Positions 17,286 through 59,600 of a DNA stretch of 64,000 bases are shown here, in pieces. Source of the stretch: Candidatus Sulfomarinibacteraceae bacterium (GTDB taxonomy: Bacteria; Acidobacteriota; Thermoanaerobaculia; Thermoanaerobaculales; Sulfomarinibacteraceae); NCBI GenBank assembly GCA_963796455.1, contig CAWCLO010000001.1, forward strand, positions 544,001 through 608,000, read 5' to 3'. Below the pieces are notes generated by a model. The model had not been told where the DNA came from. It saw only the letters and a program-made list of their open reading frames with translations, and searched no databases. A program made the position numbers and the translations under genes. How positions within the stretch are numbered: the stretch's first letter is position 1; every line of letters begins with the position of its first letter.

Positions 17286-17406
17286 AACCGAAATCTGTTT
17301 CGACGGAAAGATGCCCGGGTAGCTCCCTGCATCTTGCGTCTCCAGTGACCAGCGCCAGCGACAGGGAACAGCGGTCAGCGATCAACGGCCGGGGCAGCGA
17401 CTGCAA

Positions 17407-17760
17407 TCACATCTTCGGGTTCAACAGCCGCCAGGTCATCGCACGAACCTGATCGAAGGCGTTCATCCCGTCACGGGCGGCTGTCGCCCTGATCGCCCCG
17501 GCGTGCACGAGGAGCTTCAAGTGGCTGTCGACTTCTTTGGCCGATGCGTAGGCGATTCTCCAGTGATTCGATCGGTCTCTTCCGAACCGGCCGTGCCCTT
17601 CTGCCAGGTTCGCAGGGACTGAACTTGCCGAACGGATTACCTGATCGGCTATGGACTTCAGCGGCGATGGAACCCTCATTACAAGCTTGATCGCGATTCC
17701 TGCTGCTTCGAGGGCTTTCGAGTGGGCGACGAGGTTGGTGTTCGTGGCGGCTGAGGACAT
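17407..17760 (-). CDS. four helix bundle protein (23S rRNA IVP/bAvd-like), copy 1, 117 aa
   Basis: DQVIRSASSVPANLAEGHGR and IAYASAKEV signature; ATG at 17760 preceded by GGAGGTGA. Confidence 0.9.
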   Translation of the reverse strand: MSSAATNTNLVAHSKALEAAGIAIKLVMRVPSPLKSIADQVIRSASSVPANLAEGHGRFGRDRSNHWRIAYASAKEVDSHLKLLVHAGAIRATAARDGMNAFDQVRAMTWRLLNPKM

Positions 17761-17896
17761 GGTCACCTCCGGGTCGTTCATGCCCATTCCCACAAGCCGG
17801 TGTGGTGGCCGATGTCAAGGATGCCCTGCACCCTGCCTGTCCTCGACATCGGCCGCCCACCGGCTACCCCTTCTTTTGAACGACCCGGAGGCGGCC
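17761..17896 (-). promoter_or_regulatory. conserved two-tier leader hairpin covering the RBS, copy 1
   Basis: 17761-17780 pairs with 17877-17896, and 17795-17821 pairs with 17840-17865. Confidence 0.75.
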
Positions 17897-18151
17897 ACAT
17901 CGTCGCCTGTACTCCTGATCGCTGCCGCAGTCCTCTGTCGCTGTTCCCTGACGCTGTTGCCTGTCGCTGACGCTGGACACTGACGCTGGACACTGCCGCT
18001 GCCGCTGCATTTCGGCCACAGACGCGGACACGGGCACGGGCAACCGCGAACCGAATATTCTAAAAACCAACCCGTAAAGCACGTATTGTCAGGTGGGTAA
18101 CTTCACGACAATCTGTTTTGGACAACAGATATCCTGCATCCTGGATCCTGC

Positions 18152-18892
18152 CTACCCCGCCATGACTCCGCCATCCACCGGAATCACCGTGCCCGTCATC
18201 CACGACGAGTTGCTCGACAGCAGGAAACTGATCATCAATGCCACATCTGACGGCCGGCCGACCCGGCCCATCGGGTGGAACGCACTCATCTCGGCAACCT
18301 GCTCCGGGGTCATGCCGCGCCCCGCGTGAATGGGGGTGTCGATCACCGCCGGCATCACCGCATTGACCCGGATCTCGGGCGCCCATTCGAGGGCCAGGGA
18401 ACGGGTCAGCTGGTTGAGTGCGGCCTTCGAGGCGTTGTAGGCGGCCATCCCGGGTATCGCCTTTTCGGCAAGGGTCGAGGACACATTGACCACCGCCGGT
18501 GAAGAGCCCTTTCCGAGGAGGCCTGCAAGCTCACGACAAAGCAGGAAGGGGCCTCGAACATTGATAGCAAAGGTCTCGTCCCAGAGTTCGTCGGTGCTCT
18601 CCAGGAGGGAGGCCATTGGGGCGACGCCGGCGTTGTTGACCAGACCATCAACTGCTCCCCAATGGGACCCGGCCTTTTCGGCGACCGCACGAACGGCCCC
18701 TGCATCCGACACATCGCACGACCATCCGACCGCCTTTTCGCCAAGTTCGGCAACGGCGGTCTGCAGGGATTCTGCCCTTCGACCGAGGAGTGCAACCTCG
18801 GCCCCCTCCGAAACCAGAATTCTCGCCGTTTCCAGGCCGATCCCGGATCCGCCACCCGAAATAACGATCCGTTTGTCGCGTAGTCCAAACAT
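18152..18892 (-). CDS. SDR family oxidoreductase
   Basis: SGGGSGIG, NNAG, YNASK, VDGG. Confidence 0.95.
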   Translation of the reverse strand: MFGLRDKRIVISGGGSGIGLETARILVSEGAEVALLGRRAESLQTAVAELGEKAVGWSCDVSDAGAVRAVAEKAGSHWGAVDGLVNNAGVAPMASLLESTDELWDETFAINVRGPFLLCRELAGLLGKGSSPAVVNVSSTLAEKAIPGMAAYNASKAALNQLTRSLALEWAPEIRVNAVMPAVIDTPIHAGRGMTPEQVAEMSAFHPMGRVGRPSDVALMISFLLSSNSSWMTGTVIPVDGGVMAG

Positions 18893-18958
18893 GTGCTTCT
18901 CCCCATCCGGTTATTTGTCACAGGCCAGTCTCGACGGCGCGGCTATTATGGACATACG

Positions 18959-19225
18959 ATGAACGACCATCCTTCACCCCATGTTGAGCACCGCCGCCTC
19001 GTACAACAGATCGTCGACGGGGGCATTCCAACCGGCAAGGACTTCGATGCCTGTCGCGAAATACTCCGAACCGACAGCGACGATGATGCCGTTTTCCAGG
19101 CGCTCTTCACGCTCCTTCAGGGCGCCCTGGCAGACCCGTTCTTCGGTATCGAAGACACCCGAAGGGTGGTGCCAGTGCTGAAGGCCCTTGCCCGCGGCGA
19201 AGTGACTCCCGGGAAGCTCATGTGA
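18959..19225 (+). CDS. small hypothetical protein
   Basis: 88-aa ORF whose stop overlaps the next start (GTGA). Confidence 0.55.
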   Translation: MNDHPSPHVEHRRLVQQIVDGGIPTGKDFDACREILRTDSDDDAVFQALFTLLQGALADPFFGIEDTRRVVPVLKALARGEVTPGKLM

Positions 19226-21252
19226 CAACCGCCTGGTCACTTTTCTCGCTCGCGGTACCGCCGGTCGCCGCGGTCCTGTCGGCCGTCTTTCTCCGGCCGA
19301 AGAAACCCGGGCCGGAGATCGTCATTGCCCTGAACACTCTGGTCCCCGGTTCCGGGCTCGCGGCCGGCGGCCGGCCAACCGTCGAGGTCGTCCTCGGCGT
19401 TCTCTTTGCAGTGGTCAGTCTGGTTTTGGCCGGCGGCGTCAACAACGCCGGAATGTTAGTCCCCAGCATGCTGGTCGGAGGCTTGTGGGCCTCGTTCCAT
19501 ACCCCGCTCAACCCATTCAAAATGCTTGCCGAAGCCGATCGGAGAAAGACCGAAGCTCGCTGGCAAAAAAACCGATCCGGCGAACAACCGGTGGTTGCGA
19601 CTGCAAAGGCGAAGCTCGCAATCGATACCAGCGGCAGCGACGAAGACGAAACGGTCGTCGAGAACCACTACTGCGTCGAGGTCCGGTGTACCGAATGCGG
19701 TGCCGCCCTGCCGGTTCCCGTCCTCCACCACATGGCCCACTGTTCGTTTTGCAGCAGCGACCACTTGGTCGTCGGTCACGAAGAAACTCTCTTCGTCACC
19801 CTGCCCGAACGAATCTATGATGCAAACGTTCTCCGTGAAGCGGTCCTCGACCACTATCGATACCAGCACTATCTCAAGCTCTACCACCGGACCGTTGCGC
19901 CGCTGGCGCGCCAGACGACAGACGCCAGTCCCACCGGGGCTCTGATTGATCGTGGTGAATTCGACGTCGCAGCGGCGGCGGCCGAGGTTGCGGTTTCGCG
20001 CAAGGCGGATGCTTACCGGACAAAACTGGCGGAGAGCCTCCTGGTTGGCAAGACATTCCACTTCCTGACGCCATACCGCCACGGCATGGGCACGCTCTAT
20101 CAGGCCTCGTTTGGGCGATCAACCAGAGACCACGAGAAGCTCCTGCGTTTCGATGTGGGGACAATCGAGGCGGCCGTCGGAGCCTCGAACCAGGTGGACC
20201 TCCCTCCGATGGGCAAGCTCTCCTACCTCCGGGCACTCCATCCCGCGGTCAATTGCGCCGAGGGTCTTCAAACCCTACCGATCGAGGGAGACGACGAGGA
20301 TCTCCATCGCGCCTTCGGAGATCTCGACCGAAAACGACTGGTGCGGGACATCCAGATCATCCGTCTCGGATCCAGATTTACCCGCGAGGTCACAGCAATC
20401 GTGTGGCGACCGTGGTGGATCGCCGAAGTCCGCGGCCCCGAAATCGACGAGACGGTGCTTCTCGACAGCGCGTCAGGCTCGGTGGTCGGCCCAGCGCCCA
20501 TATTCGATCCGGAGATCCTCGTTGATCTTCCCCAAACCGCACGGGACCCGGGCACCGGTCTTCGCTTCGTGCCGATGGAGTGCCCGACCTGCGGCCACGA
20601 ATTTCAATTCGACCCGGATGCAGTGCTTCATTTCTGTCACAACTGTCACCGCGTGTGCGGGGTGAACAATGGCCGCAAAGAGCACGTCGAATACGGTCAC
20701 ATTCCGCTTCCGGACGAGTCCGGATGGGATTTGATCCCGTTTTGGAGGTTTCCGCTCCGGCTTCGCACCGGTGGCGGCGAATTCATCACCGACCTGATGC
20801 GGCTCAAGGACGGTATCGACGGCGTCTTTGACCAGATCGGCGACGACGCCCCTGATCGACAGCACCTTTTCTACGTGCCCGCCATTCGCTGCATCAATCC
20901 ACGCCTGATGGCCAACGCCTTCAACCGGCTTTTTCTCTACGCCATCCGCAACCGCCCGCCAAAGGTCATGAAGAGGTTCGAGCTCGACGATCACCCGCAG
21001 CCCTGGACGGTCAGCCTGGCCGAGAACGAGGCCCGAAATCTCGCCCCGCTCTACCTCGCAAACGTATTCAGTCGCAGGGACATCGCCAAGGTCAACATCC
21101 ACCAGGTCGCGTCTTGGCTCTTCGAAGCCTCGCAGGAAGCGGAAGGACACCTGATGTACGTCCCGGTGCCTCAGCCGGTGACCGAGCCCTTTCGGCGCCA
21201 CGTCGGGCGTTTCCGCGATGACGCAGTCCACCATGTCACGGGAAAGGCTTGA
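19222..21252 (+). CDS. membrane-anchored protein with two zinc-ribbon modules
   Basis: N-terminal hydrophobic helices; CTEC..CSFC and CPTC..CHNC. Confidence 0.75.
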   Translation: MTTAWSLFSLAVPPVAAVLSAVFLRPKKPGPEIVIALNTLVPGSGLAAGGRPTVEVVLGVLFAVVSLVLAGGVNNAGMLVPSMLVGGLWASFHTPLNPFKMLAEADRRKTEARWQKNRSGEQPVVATAKAKLAIDTSGSDEDETVVENHYCVEVRCTECGAALPVPVLHHMAHCSFCSSDHLVVGHEETLFVTLPERIYDANVLREAVLDHYRYQHYLKLYHRTVAPLARQTTDASPTGALIDRGEFDVAAAAAEVAVSRKADAYRTKLAESLLVGKTFHFLTPYRHGMGTLYQASFGRSTRDHEKLLRFDVGTIEAAVGASNQVDLPPMGKLSYLRALHPAVNCAEGLQTLPIEGDDEDLHRAFGDLDRKRLVRDIQIIRLGSRFTREVTAIVWRPWWIAEVRGPEIDETVLLDSASGSVVGPAPIFDPEILVDLPQTARDPGTGLRFVPMECPTCGHEFQFDPDAVLHFCHNCHRVCGVNNGRKEHVEYGHIPLPDESGWDLIPFWRFPLRLRTGGGEFITDLMRLKDGIDGVFDQIGDDAPDRQHLFYVPAIRCINPRLMANAFNRLFLYAIRNRPPKVMKRFELDDHPQPWTVSLAENEARNLAPLYLANVFSRRDIAKVNIHQVASWLFEASQEAEGHLMYVPVPQPVTEPFRRHVGRFRDDAVHHVTGKA

Positions 21253-21273
21253 GTTTCGAGTTCCGGCCACTCA

Positions 21274-21563
21274 CATCTCACAACCGCAGATCACGCAGAT
21301 GGACGCAGATTGTCGGCCCGTCAATTGAATAGCATCGGTGTATCCGAAACCGCATTCTTGCTTGGAAGGGGTTGAAAACGCAAAGACGCAAAGACGCAAA
21401 GACGACGCTAATTTTTGAGTTCGGTTCGATCGAAATGTCTGCGTTCTGCGCGTCTTCGCAGTTCCAAAACCGACAATTCTCGTTCGAGAATCGATCGGCG
21501 CTCCGTCGTTCAGGGCCCGGTTCCGCTAATCTGCGGCCATCTGCGTGATCTGCGGTTTCTCCG
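21274..21563 (+). repeat. ~290-bp MITE-like unit, copy A
   Basis: 30-bp terminal inverted repeats at 21282-21311 and 21528-21557 (one mismatch) built of CGCAGAT units; internal (ACGCAAAG)x3. Confidence 0.8.
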
Positions 21564-21737
21564 TTTCGTATACCCCGGGCAGTCTGCCGACAAGGTCACA
21601 GGCTTCAGGAAACAGGTCTGAGGCCTCGAGCCCGTGAGAGACGGGTACAAGCCCCAGGTCCCAAGCGCCAAGCCTTTCCCGCTTGAGAGGGGCTCCAGGC
21701 TCGGCTATCCTTACGGTCGACAAACAACGGAGGACAC

Positions 21738-22166
21738 ATGGCAGCCGAAATCTTCACCGATGACTGGGCACAGCTCTGGAACGACAGCATCAACTCCAAC
21801 GAGGAGTACAAGAAGGCCGCCACCAAGTGGGAGGGGGCCATCGGCATGGTGATGACCGCCGACGCCGAGATGGGTATCAGCGAAGAACGCATCGTCATCG
21901 CGGACCTGTGGCACGGCGACTGTCGCAATGCCAAGGCCGCCGGCCACTCCGATCTCGAGGACACCCCATACCTGATCAAGGCCAACCCGGCGGCCTGGAA
22001 GAGCGTCCTCGCCGGCAAGACCGACCCCATCGTCGGTCTCATGGGCGGTAAACTCAAGCTCGCAAAGGGCAGCCTCTTTGCCTTACTGCCCTACGCCAAG
22101 GCCGCTAAGGAACTCGTTCAATCGGCGATTTCGGTCGATACGTCCTACCCGGACGGCTGGGACTGA
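21738..22166 (+). CDS. SCP2 sterol/lipid-binding domain protein
   Basis: INSNEEYKKAATKWEG, DLWHGDC, DPIVGLMGGKLKLAKG; GGAGG RBS. Confidence 0.85.
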   Translation: MAAEIFTDDWAQLWNDSINSNEEYKKAATKWEGAIGMVMTADAEMGISEERIVIADLWHGDCRNAKAAGHSDLEDTPYLIKANPAAWKSVLAGKTDPIVGLMGGKLKLAKGSLFALLPYAKAAKELVQSAISVDTSYPDGWD

Positions 22167-22283
22167 ACGATCTGTTTGCCGCGAAGCGGCAAGGCCTAGA
22201 CCTTCAAAAAGCCTGAATTTCAGGAATGTTTCCCACTCGAGAGAATTAATAATCCTCTATCTATCAATGGTTTATGAAATTTA

Positions 22284-22357
22284 TGCCGCAAAGCGGCAAA
22301 AAACCCTTGACACTCATGCCGCAGCGCGTTACATTCTCTCTATGCCGCAAAGCGGCA
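22284..22357 (+). promoter_or_regulatory. sigma70 promoter bracketed by palindromic operators
   Basis: TTGACA(22307)-17 bp-TACATT(22330); TGCCGCAAAGCGGCA at 22284-22298 and 22343-22357. Confidence 0.85.
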
Positions 22358-22412
22358 AAATACTTCGAAACGGCACACGGCTACGACGCCGACTCACGCC
22401 AAGGAGGCAGAA

Positions 22413-22886
22413 ATGACCGCAAAAAAGAAAAGCAATGTGATCAAAGACGACATCATGGATTCGGCCCACAAGGTGTGGCTCGCCGGTCTCGGCGCTGTCG
22501 CCATGGCTGAGCAAGAGGGCGGCAAGTTCTTCTCCAACCTCGTAAAAAAGGGTGAGAAGCTCGAGGACAAAAGCAAGGACAAAGTTGAAGACAAGGTCGA
22601 GCAGGCGAAGGGCACCGTGTTGGGTATGAAGACCGTCGCGGAGAGCTATTGGGAAACCTTTGGCCGAACCATCGACGACCAGGTCACTGCGGTGATCCAC
22701 CGCATCGGCGTACCGACAAAGGACGAGATCAGCACCCTGACCAAAAAGGTCGAGGAGCTCACCGTTGCCGTCGACAAACTCCGCACCAAGGGGGCCACCA
22801 AGCCACCCGCCGCCGCGAAAAAGCCCGCCGCGAAAAAAGCACCCGCCAAGAAGGCACCCGCCAAGACAGCGCCGGTAGCGAAATAA
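22413..22886 (+). CDS. phasin family (PhaF/PhaI-like) granule-associated protein with AAKK tail
   Basis: SAHKVWLAGLGA, EGGKFFSNLVKKGE, RIGVPTKDEI, C-terminal AAKKPAAKKAPAKK. Confidence 0.9.
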   Translation: MTAKKKSNVIKDDIMDSAHKVWLAGLGAVAMAEQEGGKFFSNLVKKGEKLEDKSKDKVEDKVEQAKGTVLGMKTVAESYWETFGRTIDDQVTAVIHRIGVPTKDEISTLTKKVEELTVAVDKLRTKGATKPPAAAKKPAAKKAPAKKAPAKTAPVAK

Positions 22887-22910
22887 GCGCGAACCAAATA
22901 CAACCACCAC

Positions 22911-22940
22911 AACGGCGCCGCGAATGCGGCGCCGTTTTTT
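22911..22940 (+). terminator. intrinsic terminator
   Basis: AACGGCGCCGC-GAAT-GCGGCGCCGTT followed by a T run. Confidence 0.85.
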
Positions 22941-22962
22941 CCTGCCTGCAGGTTGCACGACA

Positions 22963-23232
22963 CGGGGAAACCGCAGATCACGCAGATGACCGCAGATACC
23001 GGAACCGTAGCTTGAACGAAGGACCGGAGATCGACTCTCAAACGGTCATTGTCGATGTGGAACCGCGAAGACGCGAAGTCCGCAACGATTTCTTACAAAC
23101 CGGAATCGAAAAACTTTGCGTCTTTGCGTTTTCAACCCCTGCAAGCAAGAAGGCGGTTTCCGATTCACCGATACCGTTCAATTGACGGCCCGACAATCTG
23201 CGCCCATCTGCGTTATCTGCAGTTGTGAGATG
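22963..23232 (-). repeat. ~270-bp MITE-like unit, copy B (inverted relative to A)
   Basis: Its reverse complement aligns end to end with 21274-21563. Confidence 0.8.
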
Positions 23233-23331
23233 CGGGCGGGCGGTTCGCCGTCAAGCCTGGACTCCGACCATCCAGGCCTCCCCGACGTAGATTTCGTTGC
23301 GATCCCGTAAGCAGTCGGATACGCTCGATTG

Positions 23332-24048
23332 ATGAGTGAACGAATTGCTGTCGTCGAAGACGAAGAGAACATCCGCGACAACGTGGCCTTTGCCCTCGAG
23401 CGCGAGGGCTACCGGGTGGAGACGTACGGCGACGGAGCGGCAGCGTGGGAGGCCTTTCAGCAGGATCTTCCCGAACTCCTGATCCTCGACATCATCATGC
23501 CCCGACTGGATGGCCTCGAGCTCTGTCGAAAAGTCCGGACGATCTCGGAGAATGTGCCGATCATTTTTCTGACCTCACGGGACGAAGAATTTGATCGGGT
23601 GCTGGGGCTCGAACTCGGTGCCGATGACTATCTCTGCAAACCGTTTTCGATGCGGGAACTTCTGGCTCGAATCAAAGTCCTTTTTCGCCGGATCGCTCTC
23701 GGTAGGGTAGCTGCCGCCGGGCCCGAAGAGGAGCTTCTGCGAATTGGACGCCTCGAACTCGATCTCCGGCGTTATACCGCACGCTGGAACGAAACCACAG
23801 TCGCCTTGACGGTGACCGAATTCATGATCCTGCACGCCCTGGTGCGCCGTCCGGGCCACGTCAAGACCCGAGAGCAGCTGATGAACGAGGGCTACCCTCA
23901 CGACACCTATGTGTCGGACCGGACGATCGACTCGCACATCAAGCGTATCCGAAAGAAGTTCGCCGAGATCGATCAAAACTTCGACGGAGTGGAAACGGTG
24001 TATGGGCTCGGATACCGATACACCGAGGACTCAAACCCGGGTTCATGA
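23332..24048 (+). CDS. OmpR-family response regulator, ChvI-like
   Basis: VVEDE, LDIIMP, GADDYLCKPFS, SDRTIDSHIKRIRKKF, ETVYGLGY. Confidence 0.93.
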   Translation: MSERIAVVEDEENIRDNVAFALEREGYRVETYGDGAAAWEAFQQDLPELLILDIIMPRLDGLELCRKVRTISENVPIIFLTSRDEEFDRVLGLELGADDYLCKPFSMRELLARIKVLFRRIALGRVAAAGPEEELLRIGRLELDLRRYTARWNETTVALTVTEFMILHALVRRPGHVKTREQLMNEGYPHDTYVSDRTIDSHIKRIRKKFAEIDQNFDGVETVYGLGYRYTEDSNPGS

Positions 24049-32987: not shown

Positions 32988-33060
32988 CAGGATTTCGCCG
33001 AAACGTGTTGATCAGTCGATCAGGGTGACACGCTTCACGGTCGAAGCGATTGCGATGTTC

Positions 33061-33095
33061 TATCTGCGTCCATCTGCGTGATCTGCGGTTTCTCC
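33061..33095. repeat. solo terminal repeat of the MITE-like unit
   Basis: ATCTGCGTCCATCTGCGTGATCTGCGGTTTCTCC matches the right end of copy A. Confidence 0.8.
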
Positions 33096-45852: not shown

Positions 45853-45922
45853 CGTGCCGGACTAACGGCGTCCACCCGCCATCCAGTGCTCTCTGTTATA
45901 GTCCGCCACCGGGCGTGCTGTG

Positions 45923-47191
45923 ATGTCGACACACCATCTGAATGCATCCGATTCGAAGACCACCTCCTATTTGGGCTGGTCTGTGTTGGCCCTCGCCATG
46001 TCAATTCCCCTGTACCGACCGTGGGTCGGCATGGCGGCAGTGCTCATCTTGATCATCTGGATATTCGGTGGTGGCGTCCGCCGACGGCTCCACGATCTGA
46101 CGACCAGCCGGTTGAACCTCGCCGTCCTCGTCTTCATCGGCGTCAACCTGCTGTCCCTCGCGTGGTCCGCCTTTCCAGGAGACGGTTTTCGATATACCAG
46201 AAAATACTGGTACCTCTTGCTGATTCCGGTACTCGCGAGCGCCGTCACCCCCGTTTTTCGTCGCGCCGCCGTCACCGTCTTTGCCTTTGCGGCCGCAGCA
46301 TCCTCAGCGGTTTCGATCGCAATATTTTGTGGTCTTTTCCGTTTTGGCGGCGCCCATCCGGGCAACCCCTCTCCGCTGATGCACCACATCGATTTCAGCC
46401 TCATCCTGGCCCTCGCGGCGCTGTTGATTCTCAACCGCCTGCTCCACGGAGATCTCACCTCTACCCGACGCACCGTGTGGATTGTCCTCTTCTCGGTCGT
46501 AGTTTGTGGCCTGCTCGTGAATATCGGCCGTAGCGGCCACCTCGCGTTCATCGGTGGACTTGCGGCTCTCTTGGGATTCTGGGCCCTCGGCCGCTCCAAA
46601 AGAACCCTTGCGACAGCAGCAGCCGTCCTCCTGATTGGCCTGGCCGCCACGTGGTACGGCATGCCAAGGGTTCGAGATCGAGTGCAGGAGGGCACGGGAC
46701 AGATACGCGCAGCCGTGGTTGACAAACAATTTCAAGGCTCGCTTGGCGGCAGGGTGGCCGCGACGCTCGTGGCGGGAGAAATCATCCGCGCCCACCCCCT
46801 CCTCGGAACCGGTGTCGGGGCCAATATGCCCGAATTCAGACGGATCCTCGAATCTGAATACCCGGAATTCTCATTCGCCATTTCCTGGTATCCGCATTTT
46901 CACAACCAATACACTCAGATCGCCACCGAGCTGGGTCTGCTCGGTCTGTTGTCTCTTGCCTGGATTTTCTTCGAACTGGTGCGCGGCCCGATACATAATC
47001 GGGAGTTCAAAGCTACGGCGATCATTCTGGCGACCGTCTACCTCCTCGGATTCATCGGCGAGCCCTTCCTCCACAAACAGCTCACCCTGGTCGCCTTCGC
47101 CCTGTTTGCCGGGCTGATCGCCGGAGAGCAACTGGATTCCAGCGATCGGGGACAGCGACGGGGAACGGCAGACAGCGTCAGCCAACAGTAG
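45923..47191 (+). CDS. O-antigen ligase family (Wzy_C) membrane protein
   Basis: Multiple TM helices; GRSG, HPLLGTGVG, HFHNQYTQIATELGLLG. Confidence 0.9.
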   Translation: MSTHHLNASDSKTTSYLGWSVLALAMSIPLYRPWVGMAAVLILIIWIFGGGVRRRLHDLTTSRLNLAVLVFIGVNLLSLAWSAFPGDGFRYTRKYWYLLLIPVLASAVTPVFRRAAVTVFAFAAAASSAVSIAIFCGLFRFGGAHPGNPSPLMHHIDFSLILALAALLILNRLLHGDLTSTRRTVWIVLFSVVVCGLLVNIGRSGHLAFIGGLAALLGFWALGRSKRTLATAAAVLLIGLAATWYGMPRVRDRVQEGTGQIRAAVVDKQFQGSLGGRVAATLVAGEIIRAHPLLGTGVGANMPEFRRILESEYPEFSFAISWYPHFHNQYTQIATELGLLGLLSLAWIFFELVRGPIHNREFKATAIILATVYLLGFIGEPFLHKQLTLVAFALFAGLIAGEQLDSSDRGQRRGTADSVSQQ

Positions 47192-47940
47192 ACAGGGGCA
47201 GCGATCAGTCTGACTGGTACGGAGACCTGCAATCAAGACTTTGGGTTGAGCAAACGCCAGGTCATGGCACGGACCTGATCGAAGGCCTTCATCGCTTCAC
47301 TGGCTCCATTCCGGCTGATCGCCCCGGTGTGCGCGAGGAGCTCCAAGTGGCTGTCGACCTCTTTCGCCGAGGCGTAGGCGATTCTCCAGTGGTTCGAACG
47401 GTCTCTACCAACTCGGCCGTGCCCTTCTGCCAGGTTCGCAGGGACTGAACTCGCCGACCGGATTACCTGATCGGCAATAGGCTTCAGCGGAGCTGAAACC
47501 CTCATCACGAGCTTGATCGCGATTCCTGCTGCTTCGAGGGCTTTCGAGTGGGCAACGAGGTTGGTGGTCGTGGCGGCGTTGGACATGGTCACCTCCGGGT
47601 CGTTCATGCCCATACCCACAAGCCGGTGTGGCGGCCGATGTCAAGGATGCCCTGCACCCTGCCTGTCCTTGACATCGGCCGCCCACCGGCTACCCCCTTC
47701 TCTTGAACGACCCGGAGATGGCCACTTCGTCGCCTGTACTGCTGACCGCTGCCGCTGAACACTGATCACTGTTTGCTGTCCCTGTCGCTGCTAACTGTCG
47801 CTGACGCTGGACACTGTCGCTGCCACTGCAATACGGGCGTGGACGCGAACTCGGACTCGCACGCGGGCACGGGGAAACCGCAAACCGGATATGCCAAAAA
47901 GCAATCCCTAAACCTCGGGTGGTCAGGTGGGCAACTTTAT
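47140..47940 (-). mobile_element. repeated four-helix-bundle cassette, copy 2 (boundaries approximate)
   Basis: Same architecture as copies 1 and 3; shares GTCAGGTGGG(C/T)AACTT near its right end with copy 1. Confidence 0.6.
47233..47586 (-). CDS. four helix bundle protein, copy 2, 117 aa
   Basis: Same signature and length as copy 1; leader hairpin at 47587-47723. Confidence 0.9.
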   Translation of the reverse strand: MSNAATTTNLVAHSKALEAAGIAIKLVMRVSAPLKPIADQVIRSASSVPANLAEGHGRVGRDRSNHWRIAYASAKEVDSHLELLAHTGAISRNGASEAMKAFDQVRAMTWRLLNPKS

Positions 47941-52177: not shown

Positions 52178-52692
52178 AACAACTCCTCCTCGGCAATGCC
52201 CTGTCTGAGATGTTTGACGGCGTAGAGCAGGTAGCGCAGCGCGATGACCGCAAAACCGACCGGCAGAACCGCCTCGCAGACCCAGACCGGAGCAAACCCG
52301 ATCGACATGCCGCCAGCCGCTCGATCTTCCATCATCAGCCGATAGGCGCTCCACGCAACCACTGAAGACACAACGGCTGTGAAGAGATCCGTCACGACCC
52401 GGAGGCGGGCTTTCCATTGTTCCGGAAGGAACCGCGAGAGCGCATCGACGGAGATCTGTTTGTCATGGCGGGTCGCCACCATCGCACCGATCATTCCAAT
52501 CCACAAAACCGAAACCCGCAGCAGCGGGTCGGCCCACAACAAGGCACCATCGAAAAGATTGCGGAGAATAATCTGTGTCCCGGCCACCACGACCATGGAG
52601 GTCAGGAGCAGCACGAGCAAGGCGTCTTCGAAGACAGCGATCGCCCACAGGAGTCGAGCGACAGACGACTTGGATTCGGTCTCTGTTGTCAC
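52174..52692 (-). CDS. dctQ: TRAP transporter small permease
   Basis: Four TM helices; QIILRN, WADPLLR, LWIGMIGA. Confidence 0.9.
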   Translation of the reverse strand: MTTETESKSSVARLLWAIAVFEDALLVLLLTSMVVVAGTQIILRNLFDGALLWADPLLRVSVLWIGMIGAMVATRHDKQISVDALSRFLPEQWKARLRVVTDLFTAVVSSVVAWSAYRLMMEDRAAGGMSIGFAPVWVCEAVLPVGFAVIALRYLLYAVKHLRQGIAEEELF

Positions 52693-53705
52693 TCGTCGGT
52701 GGCCCGTTCCCGAGCACGGTAGGCCCCGAGGATCTCGTCGATCTCGGACAGCACACGCTCGTCATATTTGCGGAAATCCACCAGGATCTTTGTCGCCTCG
52801 GCGGCGATGACGGTCCATTGCGCTCGCGCCTCATCGGTCGGATCGACAAAGGTCACGCCCTGGGCCGTCAACGCGGCGCGGGCTTCCTGATTGTCCACCC
52901 GGGTGCGCTTGTCGAGCCTGGCGTTGGATTCGAGCAGCACTTCACGCATGATCGCCTGATCACCGGGGCTCAGCTTGTCAAAGGACTTTTTGGTGACTGC
53001 AAGGGCTCCATAGACGTAGGTGATCGGCAGGTCTGTGACGTAGGGCGCCTTGGTAAACCACTGCAGCGCGATCGCCCCGACCGGCGGAGCTGCGATGGTA
53101 TCGATCAGACCGGTCTGCAAACCGGTCAGAACATCCGATATCGGAAGTGGAACCGGCGATAATCCGGCCGCCTCGACAATTGCCAGGGAGACGGGATCAC
53201 CCTGTGGAATCCACGCCTTGCGGCCCTTCAGGTCTTCAAAATTTCGCGTCGGTTCGGCCGACATGAGGTAGGTAAACCCGGTTTCGGTCAGCCCGAATGC
53301 GATGTAGCCGGCCTCTTCGAGACCGTCGATCAGATTCTGATCCATCCGTTGACGAACGTGATCCACCTCGTCATATGATTGGAAGAGCAGTGGAATGTTG
53401 TAGACCTCGACCTCCGGATCCGCATCGGCAAGACCACCCGAAAGAAAGACCCCGCCCTGGAGCTGGCCGATTCTCATCTTGCGGATGATCGCCAGATCCG
53501 AGCCCATGGTCCCACCGGGATAAAACCGCAGACTGACCCGACCCTCGGTCCGTTCGTTCAACTCATCGGCCGATCTTTTGAACTCGTTCATCCAGTACGA
53601 ACCGTCCGGCGCCATGGTGGCGATCTTGAAGCGGTGATTCTGTGCTCCGGCCGGGACCGCCGCAATCGTCAGGACGGCAAGAAAGAAGATCATCCTTCGG
53701 TACAT
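52689..53705 (-). CDS. dctP: TRAP transporter substrate-binding protein
   Basis: KIATMAPDGS, YPGGTMG, GLQTGLID. Confidence 0.92.
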   Translation of the reverse strand: MYRRMIFFLAVLTIAAVPAGAQNHRFKIATMAPDGSYWMNEFKRSADELNERTEGRVSLRFYPGGTMGSDLAIIRKMRIGQLQGGVFLSGGLADADPEVEVYNIPLLFQSYDEVDHVRQRMDQNLIDGLEEAGYIAFGLTETGFTYLMSAEPTRNFEDLKGRKAWIPQGDPVSLAIVEAAGLSPVPLPISDVLTGLQTGLIDTIAAPPVGAIALQWFTKAPYVTDLPITYVYGALAVTKKSFDKLSPGDQAIMREVLLESNARLDKRTRVDNQEARAALTAQGVTFVDPTDEARAQWTVIAAEATKILVDFRKYDERVLSEIDEILGAYRARERATDE

Positions 53706-53706
53706 T

Positions 53707-54588
53707 TCAGTCTCCAAAATAGTCTTCGGAATCGGCCAGCAGCCTGCCCGCCTCTTCCTGTGCAATCGTATTGATCAAAGTGAGGCCCGGGGACACCGGG
53801 TCCGCCTCGATGACCTCGCGGCAGAGCCGGTCGTGAAGATCACGATCAAAGATCAATCGAGCGTATGAATCTGCCAGCAGGACCTTGGCCATCAAATTGC
53901 GACCATCCGAGAGCTCGATAACACGCTCGAAGCTCTCCCTGCCCTTCTCCGGTTGGCCACCCATTGCTTCGGGGAGGATTGTCGCGAGGATCCCGAGATA
54001 GAGGTGGGCGGCTCCGTCGTCATACTCCGGATCGAGGGCGACTACCCGCTGCATGACGGCATCGACCCGGGCCTTGTCGCCGATCGCTTTCCAATCCGCC
54101 CTGTTGGCCTGGACCCACGTCGCCCAGGCGGCACCGGCGCCGAACAGAACCCCTACGTTTTTCGCTTTCCAGCCGTCAATCACAGTTTCGAAATCAGCAT
54201 AGGGAGCACTCCAGCTATCGCAAGCCGAAGTATTGGTTCGACACATCGCCCTCCAACCGTAGTCACGACCCTTGACGGCAAGCTTCGAGGCACGGTCGTT
54301 ATCGTTGACAAAGGCACCGGCATAGCTCGAGTAGAGTTGGGCCCCTGCCAGCAGCAGACTGACATTCTCCGGGTCGTCCGCAATCAAACCGTCGATCAGA
54401 AGCAGATAGGCCGGTGCTCCCTGGCGAACGGTTTCAGGATCGTTTTGATCGAGCACCGCCGTCGTCAGGCTGTCGGCAAGACCGCTGGTCGCCGATGACA
54501 TGATGGAAGAACATCCCATAGACAGTGACGCCATGGCCACCGCGGCCAGGGGAAGGAAGAATCTCTGTCGTCGTCTCTGGTCAATCAT
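53707..54588 (-). CDS. TRAP transporter TatT (T) component lipoprotein
   Basis: Lipobox SMGC; DPETVRQGAPAYLLLIDGL, GAAHLYLG..GGQPEK; directly upstream of dctP. Confidence 0.85.
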   Translation of the reverse strand: MIDQRRRQRFFLPLAAVAMASLSMGCSSIMSSATSGLADSLTTAVLDQNDPETVRQGAPAYLLLIDGLIADDPENVSLLLAGAQLYSSYAGAFVNDNDRASKLAVKGRDYGWRAMCRTNTSACDSWSAPYADFETVIDGWKAKNVGVLFGAGAAWATWVQANRADWKAIGDKARVDAVMQRVVALDPEYDDGAAHLYLGILATILPEAMGGQPEKGRESFERVIELSDGRNLMAKVLLADSYARLIFDRDLHDRLCREVIEADPVSPGLTLINTIAQEEAGRLLADSEDYFGD

Positions 54589-54676
54589 ACTTTACAACTC
54601 ACTGATGAAAATACCGATGGGAATGGCTCGCTCAGTATGAGTTGATTGTACGGTATTTTGCGCTCGGGTGAGGTCT

Positions 54677-55312
54677 TTATCGCGTCGATCCGAATCCACC
54701 CCGCAACGGGCCGTCGCTCAGGCCTGAGGAACCATTTGCCGAGACGTTCGTGATCACTGTGGTGCCATTTCCGTCCCTGGTCATTCGCACGGGCACAGCG
54801 CGGTAGGATTTTGCGTAACGGTACGGCCGGCCCGTATACAGGGTCATGATCTTGGAGACATACGAGCGGGTTTCCGCGTAGGGCGGAATGCCGCGATAAC
54901 GGGCCACGGCGCCTTCGCCGGCATTATACGCGGCGAGAGCGAACTGCAGATTACCGGAATAGCGCTCGATCAAACGGGAAAACTCGCGAACGCCGCCCCG
55001 GATATTTTGCTCCGGATCGAAGGGGTCGTTGACACGCAGCCGTTTTGCCGTCTCCGGCATCAGTTGCATCAGACCCATGGCTCCCTTTTTGCTGACGGCC
55101 TTCGGATCGTAGGCGGATTCGACCCTGACCAGAGCGTCCACCAACTTGGGATCCACACCGTGTTCACGACTCACCTGATCGACAAGACTCCGAAGATCGT
55201 TCCGCGTGCCCGAGGCAGAGATCTCCACCGACGGAGCAGCTCCGTGCGCGCCAATCGGCGCCAAGGCGAGCAGGACCCCAAGCCCCACGACACAGGCCAT
55301 TCGTAGACTCAC
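54677..55312 (-). CDS. SLT-domain lytic transglycosylase
   Basis: VES, GAMGLMQLMP, ALAAYNAG, PYAETRSYV. Confidence 0.93.
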   Translation of the reverse strand: MSLRMACVVGLGVLLALAPIGAHGAAPSVEISASGTRNDLRSLVDQVSREHGVDPKLVDALVRVESAYDPKAVSKKGAMGLMQLMPETAKRLRVNDPFDPEQNIRGGVREFSRLIERYSGNLQFALAAYNAGEGAVARYRGIPPYAETRSYVSKIMTLYTGRPYRYAKSYRAVPVRMTRDGNGTTVITNVSANGSSGLSDGPLRGGFGSTR

Positions 55313-55331
55313 GGTACTATTATGACAGCAT

Positions 55332-56762
55332 TTGCCGCGAAAGGAGGGTCATTTGCAGGAAAAACCCGTCGAAGTCGATCCTTTCCAACTATTTGCACAC
55401 CGAATGTCGACGGCAGGCCTGAGTCGGCCGGCGATTGATTCCTTCCATTTTCACTTTGACCGACTGCACGAAGGAGACGACGGACTGCTTGCCGAAAAAG
55501 ACATCGACGCGGTTGCGAGTCTTCCCGCCGCCAGCGACCTGGAGGATTGTCGCGAGTCGGGAAAGGCGGCGCTGGAGAGAACCGTAGTCATCAAACTCAA
55601 CGGCGGTCTCGGCACAGGCATGGGGCTCGACGAGGCGAAATCGTTGCTTATGGTTCGCGATGGACTCAGCTTTCTCGATCTGATCGCTCGCCAGGTTCTC
55701 TCGCTCCGCAGCAATTACGGGGCGCAGGTTCCTCTCATTCTGATGAACAGTTTTCGAACCAATGAGCAATCAACAAAAGCCCTCGATCATTATCCAACAT
55801 TGGAGATTGCGGACATCCCCACGGGATTTCTTCAAAACAAGGTTCCCAAGATCCTCGCGAAGGGTCTGCTCCCCGCCGAGAGCCCAGAACGAGGCGATCT
55901 CGAATGGTGCCCGCCCGGACACGGCGATCTCTATACCGCGATCGCCGGTACCGGGTTGTTGCCTCGGTTGATCGACCGCGGCATCGAGTACGCCTTCGTG
56001 TCCAACGCCGACAATCTCGGCGCGGTGGTCGACACCGCCCTCCTCGGATATATGGTCGAAGACCGGATTGATTTCATGCTCGAGGCTGCGGTCCGCACGA
56101 GGGCGGATCGAAAGGGCGGCCACCTGTGTCGCCTCGCCAACGGCCGACTCGCGCTCCGCGAATCCGCGCAATGCCCGCCGGAAGCCCGATCGGCATTTCA
56201 GGACATCGAACGCTACTCGTTTTTCAACAGCAATAATCTGTGGATCCATCTGCCATCCCTGGCGGCGGTCCTCGAAGCAAGCGGGGGCTTCTTGCCACTG
56301 TCGACAATCGTCAACCGGAAGAACCTCGATCCCCGTGACCCCTCATCCCCGGCGGTCCTGCAATTGGAAACGGCCATGGGCTCCGCCATCTCCCTCTTCG
56401 AAAAGGCCACCGCGGTCATCGTCCCGAGGCAACGTTTCTCGCCGGTGAAGAACACCAACGACCTTCTCGCAACCCGCTCGGACGCCTACGATCTCACCGA
56501 AGATTCACGGGTAGTGCTCCACTCCGAGAGGAGTTCACCTCCCGTCATCTCTTTAGATGACCGATATTTCAAGATGATCGACGACTTCGAAACCAGGTTT
56601 CCGAATGGACCGCCATCCCTTCGTCGCTGCGACCTCTTCGAGGTCGAAGGAGACGTGACCTTTGGCGCCGGAGTGGTGGCCGAGGGTGCTGTCACGATTC
56701 GCGCCGACGGCCCGGCCCGGGTGCCCGACGGCACCGTGATCGATCGGGCCGTCGATCTCTAG
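55332..56762 (+). CDS. UTP--glucose-1-phosphate uridylyltransferase, eukaryote-type (UDPGP family)
   Basis: KLNGGLGTGMG..AKS, WCPPGHGD, SNADNLGA, KGG, QLETAMG, RFSPVK. Start may be 55353. Confidence 0.92.
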   Translation: MPRKEGHLQEKPVEVDPFQLFAHRMSTAGLSRPAIDSFHFHFDRLHEGDDGLLAEKDIDAVASLPAASDLEDCRESGKAALERTVVIKLNGGLGTGMGLDEAKSLLMVRDGLSFLDLIARQVLSLRSNYGAQVPLILMNSFRTNEQSTKALDHYPTLEIADIPTGFLQNKVPKILAKGLLPAESPERGDLEWCPPGHGDLYTAIAGTGLLPRLIDRGIEYAFVSNADNLGAVVDTALLGYMVEDRIDFMLEAAVRTRADRKGGHLCRLANGRLALRESAQCPPEARSAFQDIERYSFFNSNNLWIHLPSLAAVLEASGGFLPLSTIVNRKNLDPRDPSSPAVLQLETAMGSAISLFEKATAVIVPRQRFSPVKNTNDLLATRSDAYDLTEDSRVVLHSERSSPPVISLDDRYFKMIDDFETRFPNGPPSLRRCDLFEVEGDVTFGAGVVAEGAVTIRADGPARVPDGTVIDRAVDL

Positions 56763-56871
56763 CCCGTCTCTCAATTTGCCCGAGTGTGATTTGGTGCCGG
56801 TCACTTCATGACGACACGATAGAATCTCCAACACTCGAGAACGCGGAAATCTTGAAAGGAAAAACCAATCG

Positions 56872-58479
56872 ATGACTGACAGCCCACACCCCGAGGCGAA
56901 AAAATCCCCCGGTGAAGTCGTCCGCGACGCGTTTCTGGAACTCGGCTCGACCCTGGTGGCATTCATCAAGGCGCCAAAGGCCCTGTGGGGCGTCAACATC
57001 CCCTATGTGGTCGAAGGACTCGTCTACTTCGGCATCCTGACCATCCTCGGCAAGTTCTGTTCAGAAAATGTCGGGCTCAGCGACCTGCAGGCGGGATGGG
57101 TCTATTCATTGGTCACCGCCGGCATCACCTTCGCCATGCTCTTCCTCGGCGGGGTGAGCGACAAGATCGGCATTCCACGAACACTCGCCCTCTCATTTGT
57201 GTTATTTGTTGTCGGACGCGGGCTGATCGCATTTTCTGGCACTGTCGATCTCGGACAGGGGCTGGCATCGCCAATGTTCATGACCCTGGCCCTGGGTCTT
57301 CTGATCATGGTGGTGGCCTACGGTCTGTACCAACCCGCCGCCTATGCCGGAGTCAAGCGCTACACCAACCCGAAAACCGCCGCCATGGCCTACGCGGTGG
57401 TCTATGGATTGATGAACCTGGGCGCATTTTTCTCAGGTTTTGTCTCACCTCTGGTCCGCCACCGATTCGTCGGTGTTTTTCCACCCAATGGTCTGACCGC
57501 GGTCTTCTGGACCTACACCTTCCTGTGCGTCATCGCGCTCGTACTCACCCTGCTCATTTTGACGCGCAAGACGGACGCGGCGGCAGTCGAGCGTGTCGCC
57601 CGCGAAACGGCTGAACTCAGCGCTGGGGACGGCTTGTCGGAAAACACGAAGCAAGAAGAACAAGAGCTCATTGAAACGACCCCGAAGACCGACAACCGGC
57701 GTTTCATCGTCTTATTCTCCCTCGCCGTGATCGCGATCGGCGCCGCAGCGGCAGCCGCTACGGGACGCCTGAACATCGCGCCCTGGATCACCTTCGTTGC
57801 CGCCGCAGGCCTCGCCGCCCTCGCGGTTTTTGAATACCTCAGGGCCCGGCCTGATCACCCCTTCCGCGACGGTCGATTCACCTTCTTCATCTTCATCTTG
57901 ATACCGGTGCAGACCTTGTTCGCCCATACCTGGCTGACCGTTCCCTACTATCTCGACCGCGCCTTTCGCGGCTCGATGGTCAGCGACTATTTCGAGTTCT
58001 TTTCGAACATCAACCCGATTCTGATCTTTGTTCTGGCGCCGATCGTTGCCGGTCTGACGGCCCGCGCCAACATCTACACGATGATGATCATCGGCACGCT
58101 CGTCATGGCGCTGCCCACCTTCCTGCTCGTGATCGGCCCTCATCTTGTTCCGTTTCTTGCCTACATCGTGTTGATGTCGATCGGCGAAGCAATGTGGCAA
58201 CCGCGTTTCCTGCAATGGATTGCCGAGGTCGCACCCCCCGGCAAGACGGGGCTTTATATGGGGATCGGCCAGTTCCCATGGTTTCTCACCAAGTTTCTGA
58301 CCGGTCTCTACTCGGGCTATTTCGTGGCGACCTATGTTCCACGGCCTGAGTCGGGGCTGCCGATCAATTCAGAGTTCATGTGGCTGATCTACGGTTTGAT
58401 CGCCATGATTTCGCCGGTGGCACTGATCCTCACCCGAAAATGGATGATGGCGGGGATGAAGGAAAAGCACGAAGGTTGA
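56872..58479 (+). CDS. MFS transporter (POT/peptide-like)
   Basis: GGVSDKIG, MNLGAF, MSIGEAMWQPR; many TM helices. Confidence 0.85.
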   Translation: MTDSPHPEAKKSPGEVVRDAFLELGSTLVAFIKAPKALWGVNIPYVVEGLVYFGILTILGKFCSENVGLSDLQAGWVYSLVTAGITFAMLFLGGVSDKIGIPRTLALSFVLFVVGRGLIAFSGTVDLGQGLASPMFMTLALGLLIMVVAYGLYQPAAYAGVKRYTNPKTAAMAYAVVYGLMNLGAFFSGFVSPLVRHRFVGVFPPNGLTAVFWTYTFLCVIALVLTLLILTRKTDAAAVERVARETAELSAGDGLSENTKQEEQELIETTPKTDNRRFIVLFSLAVIAIGAAAAAATGRLNIAPWITFVAAAGLAALAVFEYLRARPDHPFRDGRFTFFIFILIPVQTLFAHTWLTVPYYLDRAFRGSMVSDYFEFFSNINPILIFVLAPIVAGLTARANIYTMMIIGTLVMALPTFLLVIGPHLVPFLAYIVLMSIGEAMWQPRFLQWIAEVAPPGKTGLYMGIGQFPWFLTKFLTGLYSGYFVATYVPRPESGLPINSEFMWLIYGLIAMISPVALILTRKWMMAGMKEKHEG

Positions 58480-58504
58480 CACGAAGGGCGACGATTGTTA
58501 GATT
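58476..58504 (+). promoter_or_regulatory. tRNA-Gly promoter
   Basis: TTGACA-17 bp-TAGATT. Confidence 0.7.
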
Positions 58505-58527
58505 GTCGCTCCCTTCGGGGACGTTGA

Positions 58528-58602
<75 letters not shown>

Positions 58603-58684
58603 TAAAACTCATTTGAAGCCCGGCTCACCGCCGGGCCTTTTCTTTGCCGGTGCGAGCGGATTGACCCGTCGTCGGGGGGCAATC

Positions 58685-58713
58685 TTGACCGTCGCCGAGG
58701 CGTGGACTAAACT
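58685..58713 (+). promoter_or_regulatory. tRNA-Cys promoter
   Basis: TTGACC-17 bp-TAAACT. Confidence 0.7.
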
Positions 58714-58725
58714 ACCGGCCCTGAA

Positions 58726-58800
58726 GGCGACGTGGCCAAGTGGTAAGGCAGGGGCCTGCAAAGCCCTTATCCCCCGGTTCGAATCCGGGCGTCGCCTCCA
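58726..58800 (+). tRNA. tRNA-Cys(GCA)
   Basis: GGCGACG/CGTCGCC acceptor stem, CTGCAAA anticodon loop, TTCGAAT T-loop, CCA end. Confidence 0.98.
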
Positions 58801-58818
58801 ATTCAATCCCCAATACAA

Positions 58819-58892
58819 GATGCTCGTTGCTCGATGCTGGATGCTGGATGCTGGATGCTGGATAAGTTTTGTCCGAGACAGTGTCTCGGACA
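58819..58892. repeat. (GATGCTG)n heptamer tract followed by a perfect 11-bp inverted repeat
   Basis: Six units at 58819-58860; TGTCCGAGACA-G-TGTCTCGGACA at 58870-58892. Confidence 0.85.
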
Positions 58893-59600
58893 GCGTTCAG
58901 GGACAGCAACGGCGGCAGCGGCAGCAAACAGTAGTCAGCGGCAGCATTCAGTCATCAGCGACAGCAAACGGCCCTCATATTCTCGGGTTCAATAGCCGCC
59001 AGGTCATCGCACGGACATGATCGAAGGCCTTCATTGCTTCACTGGCTCCGTCCCGGCTGATCGCACCGGCGTGGGCGAGGAGTTCCAAGTGGCTGTCGAC
59101 CTCTTTCGCCGAGGCGTAGGCGATTCTCCAGTGGTTCGACCGGTCTCTACCGACTCGGCCGTGCCCTTCCGCCAAGTTAGCAGGGACAGAACTTGCCGAC
59201 CGGATCACCTGATCGGCTATGGACTTCAGAGGAGCTGGAACCCTCATCACGAGTTTGATAGCGATTCCTGCTGCTTCCAGGGCTTTCGAGTGGGCAACGA
59301 GGTTGGTGTTCGTGGCGGCGTTGGACATGGTCACCTCCGGGTCGTTCATGCCCCATACCCACCAGCCGGTGTGGTGGCCGATGTCAAGGATGCCCCGCAC
59401 CCTGCCTGTCCTTGACATCGGCCGCCCACCGGCTACCCCTTCCTTGGAACGACCCGGAGGTGGCCACTTCGCCGACTGGAATCCTGATCGCTGCCGCTGG
59501 ATACTGACCGCTGGCCCTGTTCGCTGTTGCCTGTCGCTGTCGCTGGACGCTGCCGCTGCAATACGGGCACGGACGCGGACTCGGCGTAACGGCGAACCGG
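58890..59600 (-). mobile_element. repeated four-helix-bundle cassette, copy 3 (boundaries approximate)
   Basis: Same architecture as copies 1 and 2; leader hairpin at 59329-59465. Confidence 0.6.
58975..59328 (-). CDS. four helix bundle protein, copy 3, 117 aa
   Basis: Same signature and length as copies 1 and 2. Confidence 0.9.
   Translation of the reverse strand: MSNAATNTNLVAHSKALEAAGIAIKLVMRVPAPLKSIADQVIRSASSVPANLAEGHGRVGRDRSNHWRIAYASAKEVDSHLELLAHAGAISRDGASEAMKAFDHVRAMTWRLLNPRI

Follow-up and report, generated by a model that had tools for sequence, protein, structure and literature searches.

A dispersed four-helix-bundle cassette in a Candidatus Sulfomarinibacteraceae genome is probably a passenger-carrying, non-autonomous derivative of an IS4-family insertion sequence

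Mobile insertion cassettes (MICs) have the ends of IS4-family insertion sequences (ISs), carry a passenger in place of the transposase, and are moved in trans. Other small elements, the intervening sequences (IVSs) that bear an open reading frame (ORF) within the 23S or 16S rRNA of Coxiella (S23p), Leptospira, and Candidate Phyla Radiation (CPR) bacteria, have complementary ends able to form a stem around the ORF and short tandem repeats ahead of its start (PMC4990558 and PMC11270868). In Coxiella these repeats are heptamers, and the mobility of such IVSs is an old hypothesis that is unproven (PMC4990558). Here we describe a cassette whose protein belongs to the same PF05635/TIGR02436 family and which occurs three times in a window of 64,000 nucleotides from Candidatus Sulfomarinibacteraceae bacterium (assembly GCA_963796455.1, contig CAWCLO010000001.1; in our labels, G000:C1:544001-608000). 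A preliminary description of this DNA had proposed a self-propagating or trans-mobilised element made of a structured RNA and a small RNA-binding protein. We consider it likely that the cassette is a non-autonomous, passenger-carrying derivative of an IS4-family (IS4Sa-like) IS. Of the two modes proposed, the evidence, namely IS4 ends and 9-bp target duplications, favors trans-mobilisation, and self-propagation through an RNA or a reverse transcriptase (RT) is not supported.

The source assembly (G000; 5.02 Mb in 10 contigs, 90.5% complete) yielded 98 tblastn matches, 58 of them full-length and uninterrupted and 40 partial, broken, or distant, which bears out the high copy number that had been suspected. 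DNA identity among the 58 intact copies was 84 to 99%, averaging 89.5%, and reached 99% or more in a single pair; this set, used for selection and linkage, leaves out copies with stops or frameshifts. Match counts in 18 other genomes of the genus ranged from 0 to 54 (relatives, congeners among them, are labeled G001 to G033, and fetched loci carry L numbers), and the copies grouped by genome on a tree. Full copies measure about 780 to 890 bp. In the reading direction of the ORF, each opens with its left terminal repeat (CACTGCTGTCCAAAACAG), which is followed by some 100 bp of unique head and by an upstream arm built of imperfect units of 6 to 7 nt led by CAG. Next come the nested hairpin (about 137 nt), the ORF itself, and the complementary arm; the copy closes with the right terminal repeat, whose inward reading is CACTCTTGTCCAAGACAG. 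These terminal inverted repeats (TIRs) are 18 to 24 bp long. Both were retained in 33 of the 58 intact copies, the left in 39, the right in 46, and neither in 6. Since each of the three window copies has one or both ends missing or degraded, the repeats had escaped notice in the preliminary description.

TIR-like sites numbered 250 in G000, with 86 on contig C1 compared with 1 on a shuffled version of that contig. Of 65 TIR pairs lying 300 to 1,000 bp apart, 20 had identical 9-bp flanks and 35 had flanks no more than one mismatch apart; with shuffled partners, 1.7 were identical (maximum, 6) and 6.8 were within one mismatch (maximum, 18). The targets were mostly arrays of ATCCAGC-type heptamers, in which a 2-bp duplication could mimic one of 9 bp. 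This was ruled out by the shuffled partners and by the nonperiodic targets, 9 of 20 of which were still within one mismatch. It was also contradicted by the 7-mer across the junction, which matched in 21 of 65 pairs, whereas the adjacent array units gave 11 and 13. Both the cassette ends and the 9-bp duplication agree with the subgroup IS4Sa, for which Table 1 of PMC2266710 gives ends of the form CA------T and duplications of 8 to 10 bp.

We also found candidate partners for these ends. A scan of GTDB contigs with the left terminal repeat gave at least 113 loci, 80 of them with long flanks; records named as Ca. Sulfomarinibacteraceae were among those that bear these ends. Several elements of 1.37 to 1.41 kb in other lineages carried both ends, at least five with exact 9-bp duplications, and the ORFs scanned from two such elements were both NF033592 IS4 transposases (E, ~1e-80). 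The congener G017 contains an intact IS4 element with the cassette's ends, sitting in a heptamer array. In G006, the copies have IS4 ends, 8 of 13 exact duplications, and very short branches, which shows a young burst. There is no transposase gene inside the cassette; neither an IS4 transposase nor an RT was detected in the G000 assembly (90.5% complete), which makes a DDE transposase acting in trans, probably one of the IS4 family, the most likely mover. At least eight ORF-less miniature elements of 311 to 409 bp with the same IS4 ends were seen in other named acidobacterial genomes (L053 to L055, L060, L065, L070, L112, and L127), most of them with 9-bp duplications within one mismatch.

Like MIC231 and other passenger-carrying IS4-family derivatives, and like MITEs (transposable elements of miniature size with inverted repeats), the cassette combines IS4-family TIRs and a target duplication with probable movement in trans, and its passenger replaces the transposase. 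Unlike them, it has IS4Sa-like rather than IS231 ends, reaches dozens of copies per genome, and targets heptamer arrays. The passenger is found in ISL3 ends as well, brings arms and a hairpin of its own, and is a mosaic from copy to copy.

The ISL3 form came from a set of 40 regions from six congeners. Copies in G005, G008, and G014 and most copies in G016 have other ends (GGYTCATCCGGAATT) and lie in AACGTT-type arrays with 8-bp duplications, of which 7 of 18 were exact and 13 of 18 were within one mismatch, the right end having been wrongly called in two rows. The GGYTCATCCGGAATT ends are ISL3 ends, since an intact 1.3-kb ISL3 about 260 bp from a core in G017 bears them. At that locus (L204:948-3186; G017:C613), the ISL3 and the adjacent core could make a 2.2-kb composite bounded by ISL3 ends. 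Each of the two candidate right flanks differs from the left 8-mer by no more than one base, so the composite may be a capture intermediate.

Metagenomes added 120 loci, recovered by the motif at the foot of the hairpin (which had no exact match in viral contigs); 26 of these had the ORF and long flanks. Neither type of end was present in 18 of the 26, an ISL3 end was present in 7, and an IS4 end was present in 1; the upstream CAG arm was present in 23. On a tree of 43 ORFs, IS4-ended, ISL3-ended, and end-less states interleave, and approximately unbiased (AU) tests rejected a single clade for IS4-ended cores (P = 0.008) and for ISL3-ended cores (P = 1e-42), where G000 rows were counted as IS4 by family and end-less rows are possibly eroded. 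The cargo (CAG arm, hairpin, ORF, and complementary arm) therefore looks older than its ends. Arrays also accompany distant members of the family. Across the phylum, 16 of 26 distant TIGR02436 genes are enclosed by inverted arrays, each of the gene's own short unit. Shuffled partners gave 1.0, arrays in direct orientation gave 5, and shifted controls gave 4 of 101. The 26 were drawn from 30 loci after removal of those of G000 itself, two that came from unpublished genomes, and one whose flank was short. By eye, four divergent four-helix-bundle genes and three GxxExxY loci (one split) in G000 each lie between inverted arrays of different 6- to 9-nt units (Table 1). A protein database search returned 4,068 clusters at an E value of 1e-10 or better out of 4,119 candidates; a phylum search with a single protein at 1e-15 was positive in 1 of 200 other genomes, only 2 of which belong to the host's family. 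PF05635/TIGR02436 is a very large family for which we know of no function outside diversity-generating retroelements (DGRs).

Next, we consider the passenger itself. A structured RNA had been proposed, and a strongly conserved hairpin was found: its outer stem, present in 57 of the 58 intact copies, pairs the GGAGGT site directly ahead of the start codon, and the fold of copy 2 has a z score of -9.1. Among 12 sequences from nine genomes, two-sided changes occurred at 10 of 49 predicted pairs, mainly in the inner stem, and the outer stem was near-invariant. In a G006 subfamily (L010, L187, L188, and L195), the outer stem over the ribosome-binding site is kept around a different, longer interior. 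The arms pair with each other in the fold of one full copy, on either strand, as a prediction made without a shuffle control. Hairpin mismatches favor G-U on the strand opposite the ORF in 92 versus 13 cells but in only 20 versus 10 events (P = 0.10), which is suggestive only of that strand as the one that folds. Convergent gaps hold 23 of the 58 copies compared with 455 of 2,334 gaps overall (P = 6e-4), and in co-directional gaps, the ORF runs against host transcription in 18 of 25 cases (P = 0.04), an equally tentative pointer to that strand; both statistics rest on crude gene calls.

The 58 intact copies had a mean dN/dS of 0.14, indicating purifying selection. This value conceals a split. 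Variants private to one copy gave 0.63 (39 synonymous and 67 nonsynonymous; 0.56 to 0.67 depending on transition weight), a figure that is lowered by leaving out stop- and frameshift-bearing copies, whereas the shared variant classes gave 0.24, 0.10, 0.11, and 0.22 (Fisher P = 2e-8 versus private). Linkage (r2) fell from 0.13 within 10 bp to 0.02 past 60 bp, with 0 of 1,000 permutations as strong, so the copies are mosaics. At G000:C1:390883-391606 and C7:133820-134343, internal segments are swapped or inverted, probably by recombination between the element's inverted arms.

We also found derivatives without the ORF. In 66 copies, a doublet of repetitive extragenic palindromes (REPs) of the type associated with REP-associated tyrosine transposases (RAYTs) takes the place of the hairpin and ORF, and 9 more copies are a deletion form; among REP-bearing derivatives with both IS4 ends, 13 of 22 of the 9-bp duplications were within one mismatch. 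The spread of the 66 derivatives that lack the ORF means that the protein can be dispensed with in cis, so a strict cis requirement, as might be read from the dN/dS split, was rejected. Absence of the gene is tolerated, yet missense changes rarely spread. A common pool of oligomeric protein, with poison subunits, would fit this combination, as would selection on a few donor copies. A toxin or addiction role found no support; the Coxiella homolog did not slow the growth of E. coli (PMC4990558). We suggest tentatively that the protein could be a homo-oligomer of the Avd type, acting from a shared pool and binding stems of the element itself. On this view, a copy could do without the gene, missense subunits would be purged, and the hairpin would hold translation low.

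To place the insertions, we compared sites in relatives, where flanking genes are about 70% identical and no base-exact empty site is available. At the copy 1 site (the tsaE-SDR gap), the ORF was absent in 5 of 5 relatives, most of which carry facing heptamer arrays. The copy 2 gap was empty in 3 of 5 relatives, was occupied in G033 by an ISL3-type miniature element, and was occupied in G006 by a full, oppositely oriented cassette. Of 22 relatives' loci behind rpsA (copy 3; the G006 locus was misframed), 7 reach tRNA-Cys within 408 bp without the ORF, and most others have other neighbors. Thus, the relatives' sites lack the ORF or were filled independently, and the few, syntenically fixed copies expected of ordinary paralogs were not what we observed.

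Taken together, these results suggest that an IS4 transposase acting in trans, since lost or unassembled, would have moved the cassette many times, that ends would later have eroded, as in all three window copies, and that copies would have kept swapping short tracts by recombination. The passenger would be an older unit (CAG arm, hairpin, four-helix-bundle ORF, and complementary arm) packaged in IS4 ends, ISL3 ends, or none. Packaging in IS ends would come about because both IS types insert into the short-period arrays that surround the core. Several observations weigh against this account. The cognate IS4 transposase was not found in G000 (best tblastn E value, 0.37; 90.5% complete) or in G006, and the NF033592 cutoff was passed in only 2 of 25 genomes of the genus; it is possible that the transposase of G000 and G006 was lost or left out of the assembly. 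The only DDE_Tnp_1 match in G000 was rejected as the mover, its ends being different from the cassette's. Duplications differ at two or more bases in 30 of the 65 pairs, and both ends are missing from 6 of the 58 intact copies. The G017 assembly comprises 740 contigs, and misbinning of those that carry the ISs is possible. The 18 end-less metagenome copies are explained by DDE transposition only if their ends eroded. Two of the eight rows labeled IS4 in the AU tests have one end only, and recombination among copies weakens the trees. Finally, G004 has behind rpsA a decayed core oriented like copy 3, so this may be a hotspot or a site of some age.

The end-less copies lend themselves to a different explanation, which is compatible with IS4 movement of the others: the arm-hairpin-ORF core would itself be selfish and spread by its own non-DDE route (perhaps homing-like conversion into repeat arrays, with the protein bound to an intermediate of RNA or single-stranded DNA), the IS ends being later vehicles. 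We regard this as possible, although doubtful. It would account for the majority status of end-less copies outside G000 and G006 (18 of 26) and for the CAG arm kept in 23 of 26, as well as for the own inverted arrays at 16 of 26 distant TIGR02436 genes (1.0 when shuffled) and, by eye, at the other four-helix-bundle genes and GxxExxY loci of G000. The split in dN/dS (0.63 private versus 0.10 to 0.24 shared), the loss of linkage within about 60 bp, and the heptamer repeats that precede the same gene family in the Coxiella rRNA IVS (PMC4990558) point the same way. However, by eye the end-less copies lack sharp boundaries and duplications, end erosion is plainly common in G000, and the 66 ORF-less REP-bearing copies and the 9 deletion copies spread without the protein in cis. 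RT does not follow the cassette either: none was found in G000 or G004, and three matches were found in G001, which has one weak cassette match.

This bears more heavily on a DGR-like retroelement in which an Avd-like protein, a hairpin RNA, and an RT cooperate. PF05635 does resemble Avd (PMC10053308), the hairpin is strong, and mosaicism could reflect template switching. Nevertheless, G000 (90.5% complete) has no RVT_1 match, RVT_1 occurs in 11 of 25 genomes of the genus without relation to copy number, ORF-less copies spread, and there is no adenine bias, the distinct alleles per site in ORF columns being 0.88 for A, 0.99 for C, 0.89 for G, and 0.59 for T. Furthermore, duplication length follows the IS family of the ends (9 versus 8 bp), and we consider such a retroelement very improbable; self-propagation through an RNA or RT is likewise unsupported. 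A search for co-occurring mobility genes, which the preliminary description had suggested, did turn up six Y1_Tnp matches and the one DDE_Tnp_1 match in G000, neither kind fitting the cassette ends. The Y1_Tnp genes raise the question of mobilization as a REP-like element by a RAYT (HUH) enzyme, and the REP doublet of the 66 derivatives resembles the arms of one RAYT; in addition, a GTAG/ATAG motif stands at the foot of the middle stem. But the RAYT genes of G000 bear their own arms rather than cassette ends, the REP is confined to one derivative subfamily, and the REP-bearing derivatives with both IS4 ends show the 9-bp duplications reported above (13 of 22 within one mismatch). To our knowledge, HUH enzymes make no 9-bp duplications. 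A RAYT as the mover is therefore improbable. The overall dN/dS of 0.14 would also suit ordinary host paralogs kept for dosage, an explanation that, together with assembly artefact, we find scarcely credible. Matches vary from 0 to 98 over 19 genomes of the genus, copies cluster by genome, relatives' sites lack the ORF, and independent sequencing runs hold the sequence.

Compared with the rRNA IVSs, the cassette is intergenic (rRNA was found at 0 of 20 metagenome loci scanned) and has IS ends, duplications, and an extra hairpin of 137 nt; its ORF shows purifying selection, in contrast to the decay reported for the ORF of Coxiella. A profile built from 50 homologs matched the XCC0516 structure (PDB 2GSC; E, 7e-11) and 2RLD (E, 2e-8), with five chains per entry, by sequence profile only, and gave no sequence match to any Avd chain. 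The GxxRxxxSxxxNxxE motif of PMC3936711 is kept in the cassette protein except for the G. In contrast to DGRs with Avd, no RT was found in G000 and there is no A-specific mutagenesis. Dispersed inverted heptamer arrays in Xanthomonas and Nostoc (PMC4692102) are likewise intergenic 7-nt arrays, often in facing pairs. That paper reports no general link to mobile elements, whereas here arrays are IS4 and ISL3 targets and arms around small genes. We found no published description of the cassette or of repeat-armed four-helix-bundle genes outside rRNA in a literature search that covered few subscription papers.

The three window copies (Table 1) are all intergenic. Their ORFs are intact, and the counts of 8 (copies 2 and 3) and 16 (copies 1 and 3) differences in 117 residues given in the preliminary description were reproduced exactly; copies 1 and 2 differ at 18. 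DNA homology extends over 586 to 717 bp at 85 to 87% identity. All three proteins matched PF05635 (E, ~1e-14) and TIGR02436 (E, ~1e-15) at 55 to 58 bits against cutoffs of 33.8 and 24. Neighbors are mutually unrelated, as had been noted: tsaE and SDR at copy 1, O-antigen ligase and glycosyltransferase genes at copy 2, and tRNA-Cys and rpsA at copy 3. Profile scans agreed with the earlier statement that the window has no transposase, integrase, or RT: none was found among the 27 ORFs scanned of 297 listed, and the G000-wide DDE_Tnp_1, Y1_Tnp, and RVT_1 searches placed nothing there. The surviving ends are a degenerate left end at copy 1, none at copy 2, and a degenerate right end at copy 3.

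Contigs of 3 of 3 public runs cover parts of the copy 2 ORF; two RNA libraries gave small shares (0.07 and 0.04) and contigs over the ORF, which reveal neither strand nor transcription. Because no two of the three copies are identical and independent public runs hold the sequence, assembly artefact is an unlikely source of the repeats. No sigma-70 promoter or terminator match was found at 17250 to 18200, and an Rfam scan of the window gave two tRNAs and sub-threshold miRNA hairpin matches on copy 2 only. The last codons of the convergent O-antigen ligase ORF (45920 to 47191, plus strand) appear to be replaced by the copy 2 arm, with the stop inside the element.

Table 1. Cassette parts in the window, with array-flanked loci elsewhere in G000 (window positions unless a contig is named)
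Feature	Position	Strand	Remarks
Copy 1 left TIR, IS4-type	18113..18130	-	first three bases degenerate; adjoins GGATGCA-type heptamer array
Copy 1 unique head and short hexamer run inside left end	18000..18112	-	inner bound approximate
Copy 1 upstream arm, imperfect CAG-led 6- to 7-nt units	17900..18000	-	bounds approximate
Copy 1 nested hairpin	17761..17896	-	3' outer strand includes GGAGGT ribosome-binding site beside ATG
Copy 1 four-helix-bundle ORF	17407..17760	-	117 aa
Copy 1 downstream complementary arm	17340..17406	-	right terminal repeat missing; in convergent tsaE-SDR gap
Copy 2 partial head and upstream arm	47724..47937	-	left terminal repeat missing
Copy 2 nested hairpin	47587..47723	-	fold with flanks -102 kcal/mol, z -9.1
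Copy 2 four-helix-bundle ORF	47233..47586	-	117 aa
Copy 2 downstream arm	47140..47232	-	right terminal repeat missing
Copy 3 truncated head and upstream arm	59466..59604	-	begins just past rpsA terminator; left terminal repeat missing
Copy 3 nested hairpin	59329..59465	-	
Copy 3 four-helix-bundle ORF	58975..59328	-	117 aa
Copy 3 downstream arm	58864..58974	-	ends with degenerate right terminal repeat (58864-58881)
ATCCAGC heptamer array, usual target of the cassette family	58826..58863		minus strand; just ahead of tRNA-Cys; outer bound approximate
GxxExxY loci (three, listed first) and divergent four-helix-bundle genes (four) of G000	C1:453837-454322, C1:750056-750499, C1:748272 onward; C4:1278079, C1:983116, C9:2705, C10:733016		by eye

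Other features of the window were recorded. Two noncoding elements of about 300 bp (21263 to 21569 and, inverted, 22957 to 23243), 77% identical, face each other around a 1.4-kb block with a phasin gene; a fragment lies near 33060 to 33095, and no further long copies were found in G000. They have nested inverted short-repeat arms, CGCAGAT-type outside and GACGCAAA-type inside, and the same units flank GxxExxY genes elsewhere in G000. Tandem paralogs at 10873 to 11901 and 12051 to 13043 (70% DNA identity, 330 to 342 aa) have no Pfam match; by eye, they have a signal-like N terminus and a kinase-like DLVAN..D.N...IDCSR motif. An ORF of 676 aa at 19222 to 21252 had no Pfam match at an E value of 0.01.

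We conclude that the cassette is best regarded as a real mobile element and a new member of the non-autonomous IS derivatives with a passenger, and that its passenger may be a wider, undescribed selfish unit. In its fullest form, which we think rather unlikely, the latter idea holds that the core is a free-living form of the ORF-bearing rRNA IVSs, distributed phylum-wide with a different short-repeat arm each time, whose Avd-like protein would bind its own stem, promote copying or conversion into short-repeat arrays, and enable it to capture the ends of unrelated transposons (IS4 and ISL3) that are directed at those arrays. If this were true, dispersed bacterial heptamer arrays would in part be the unit's empty arms. 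The cassette offers a simple test system: its ends are defined, one congener (G017) has intact partner transposases from both families, natural alleles are numerous and show a clear signal of selection, and copies without the ORF can serve as controls. Through it, hitherto unexplained intergenic heptamer arrays are also linked to mobile DNA, both as targets and as arms.

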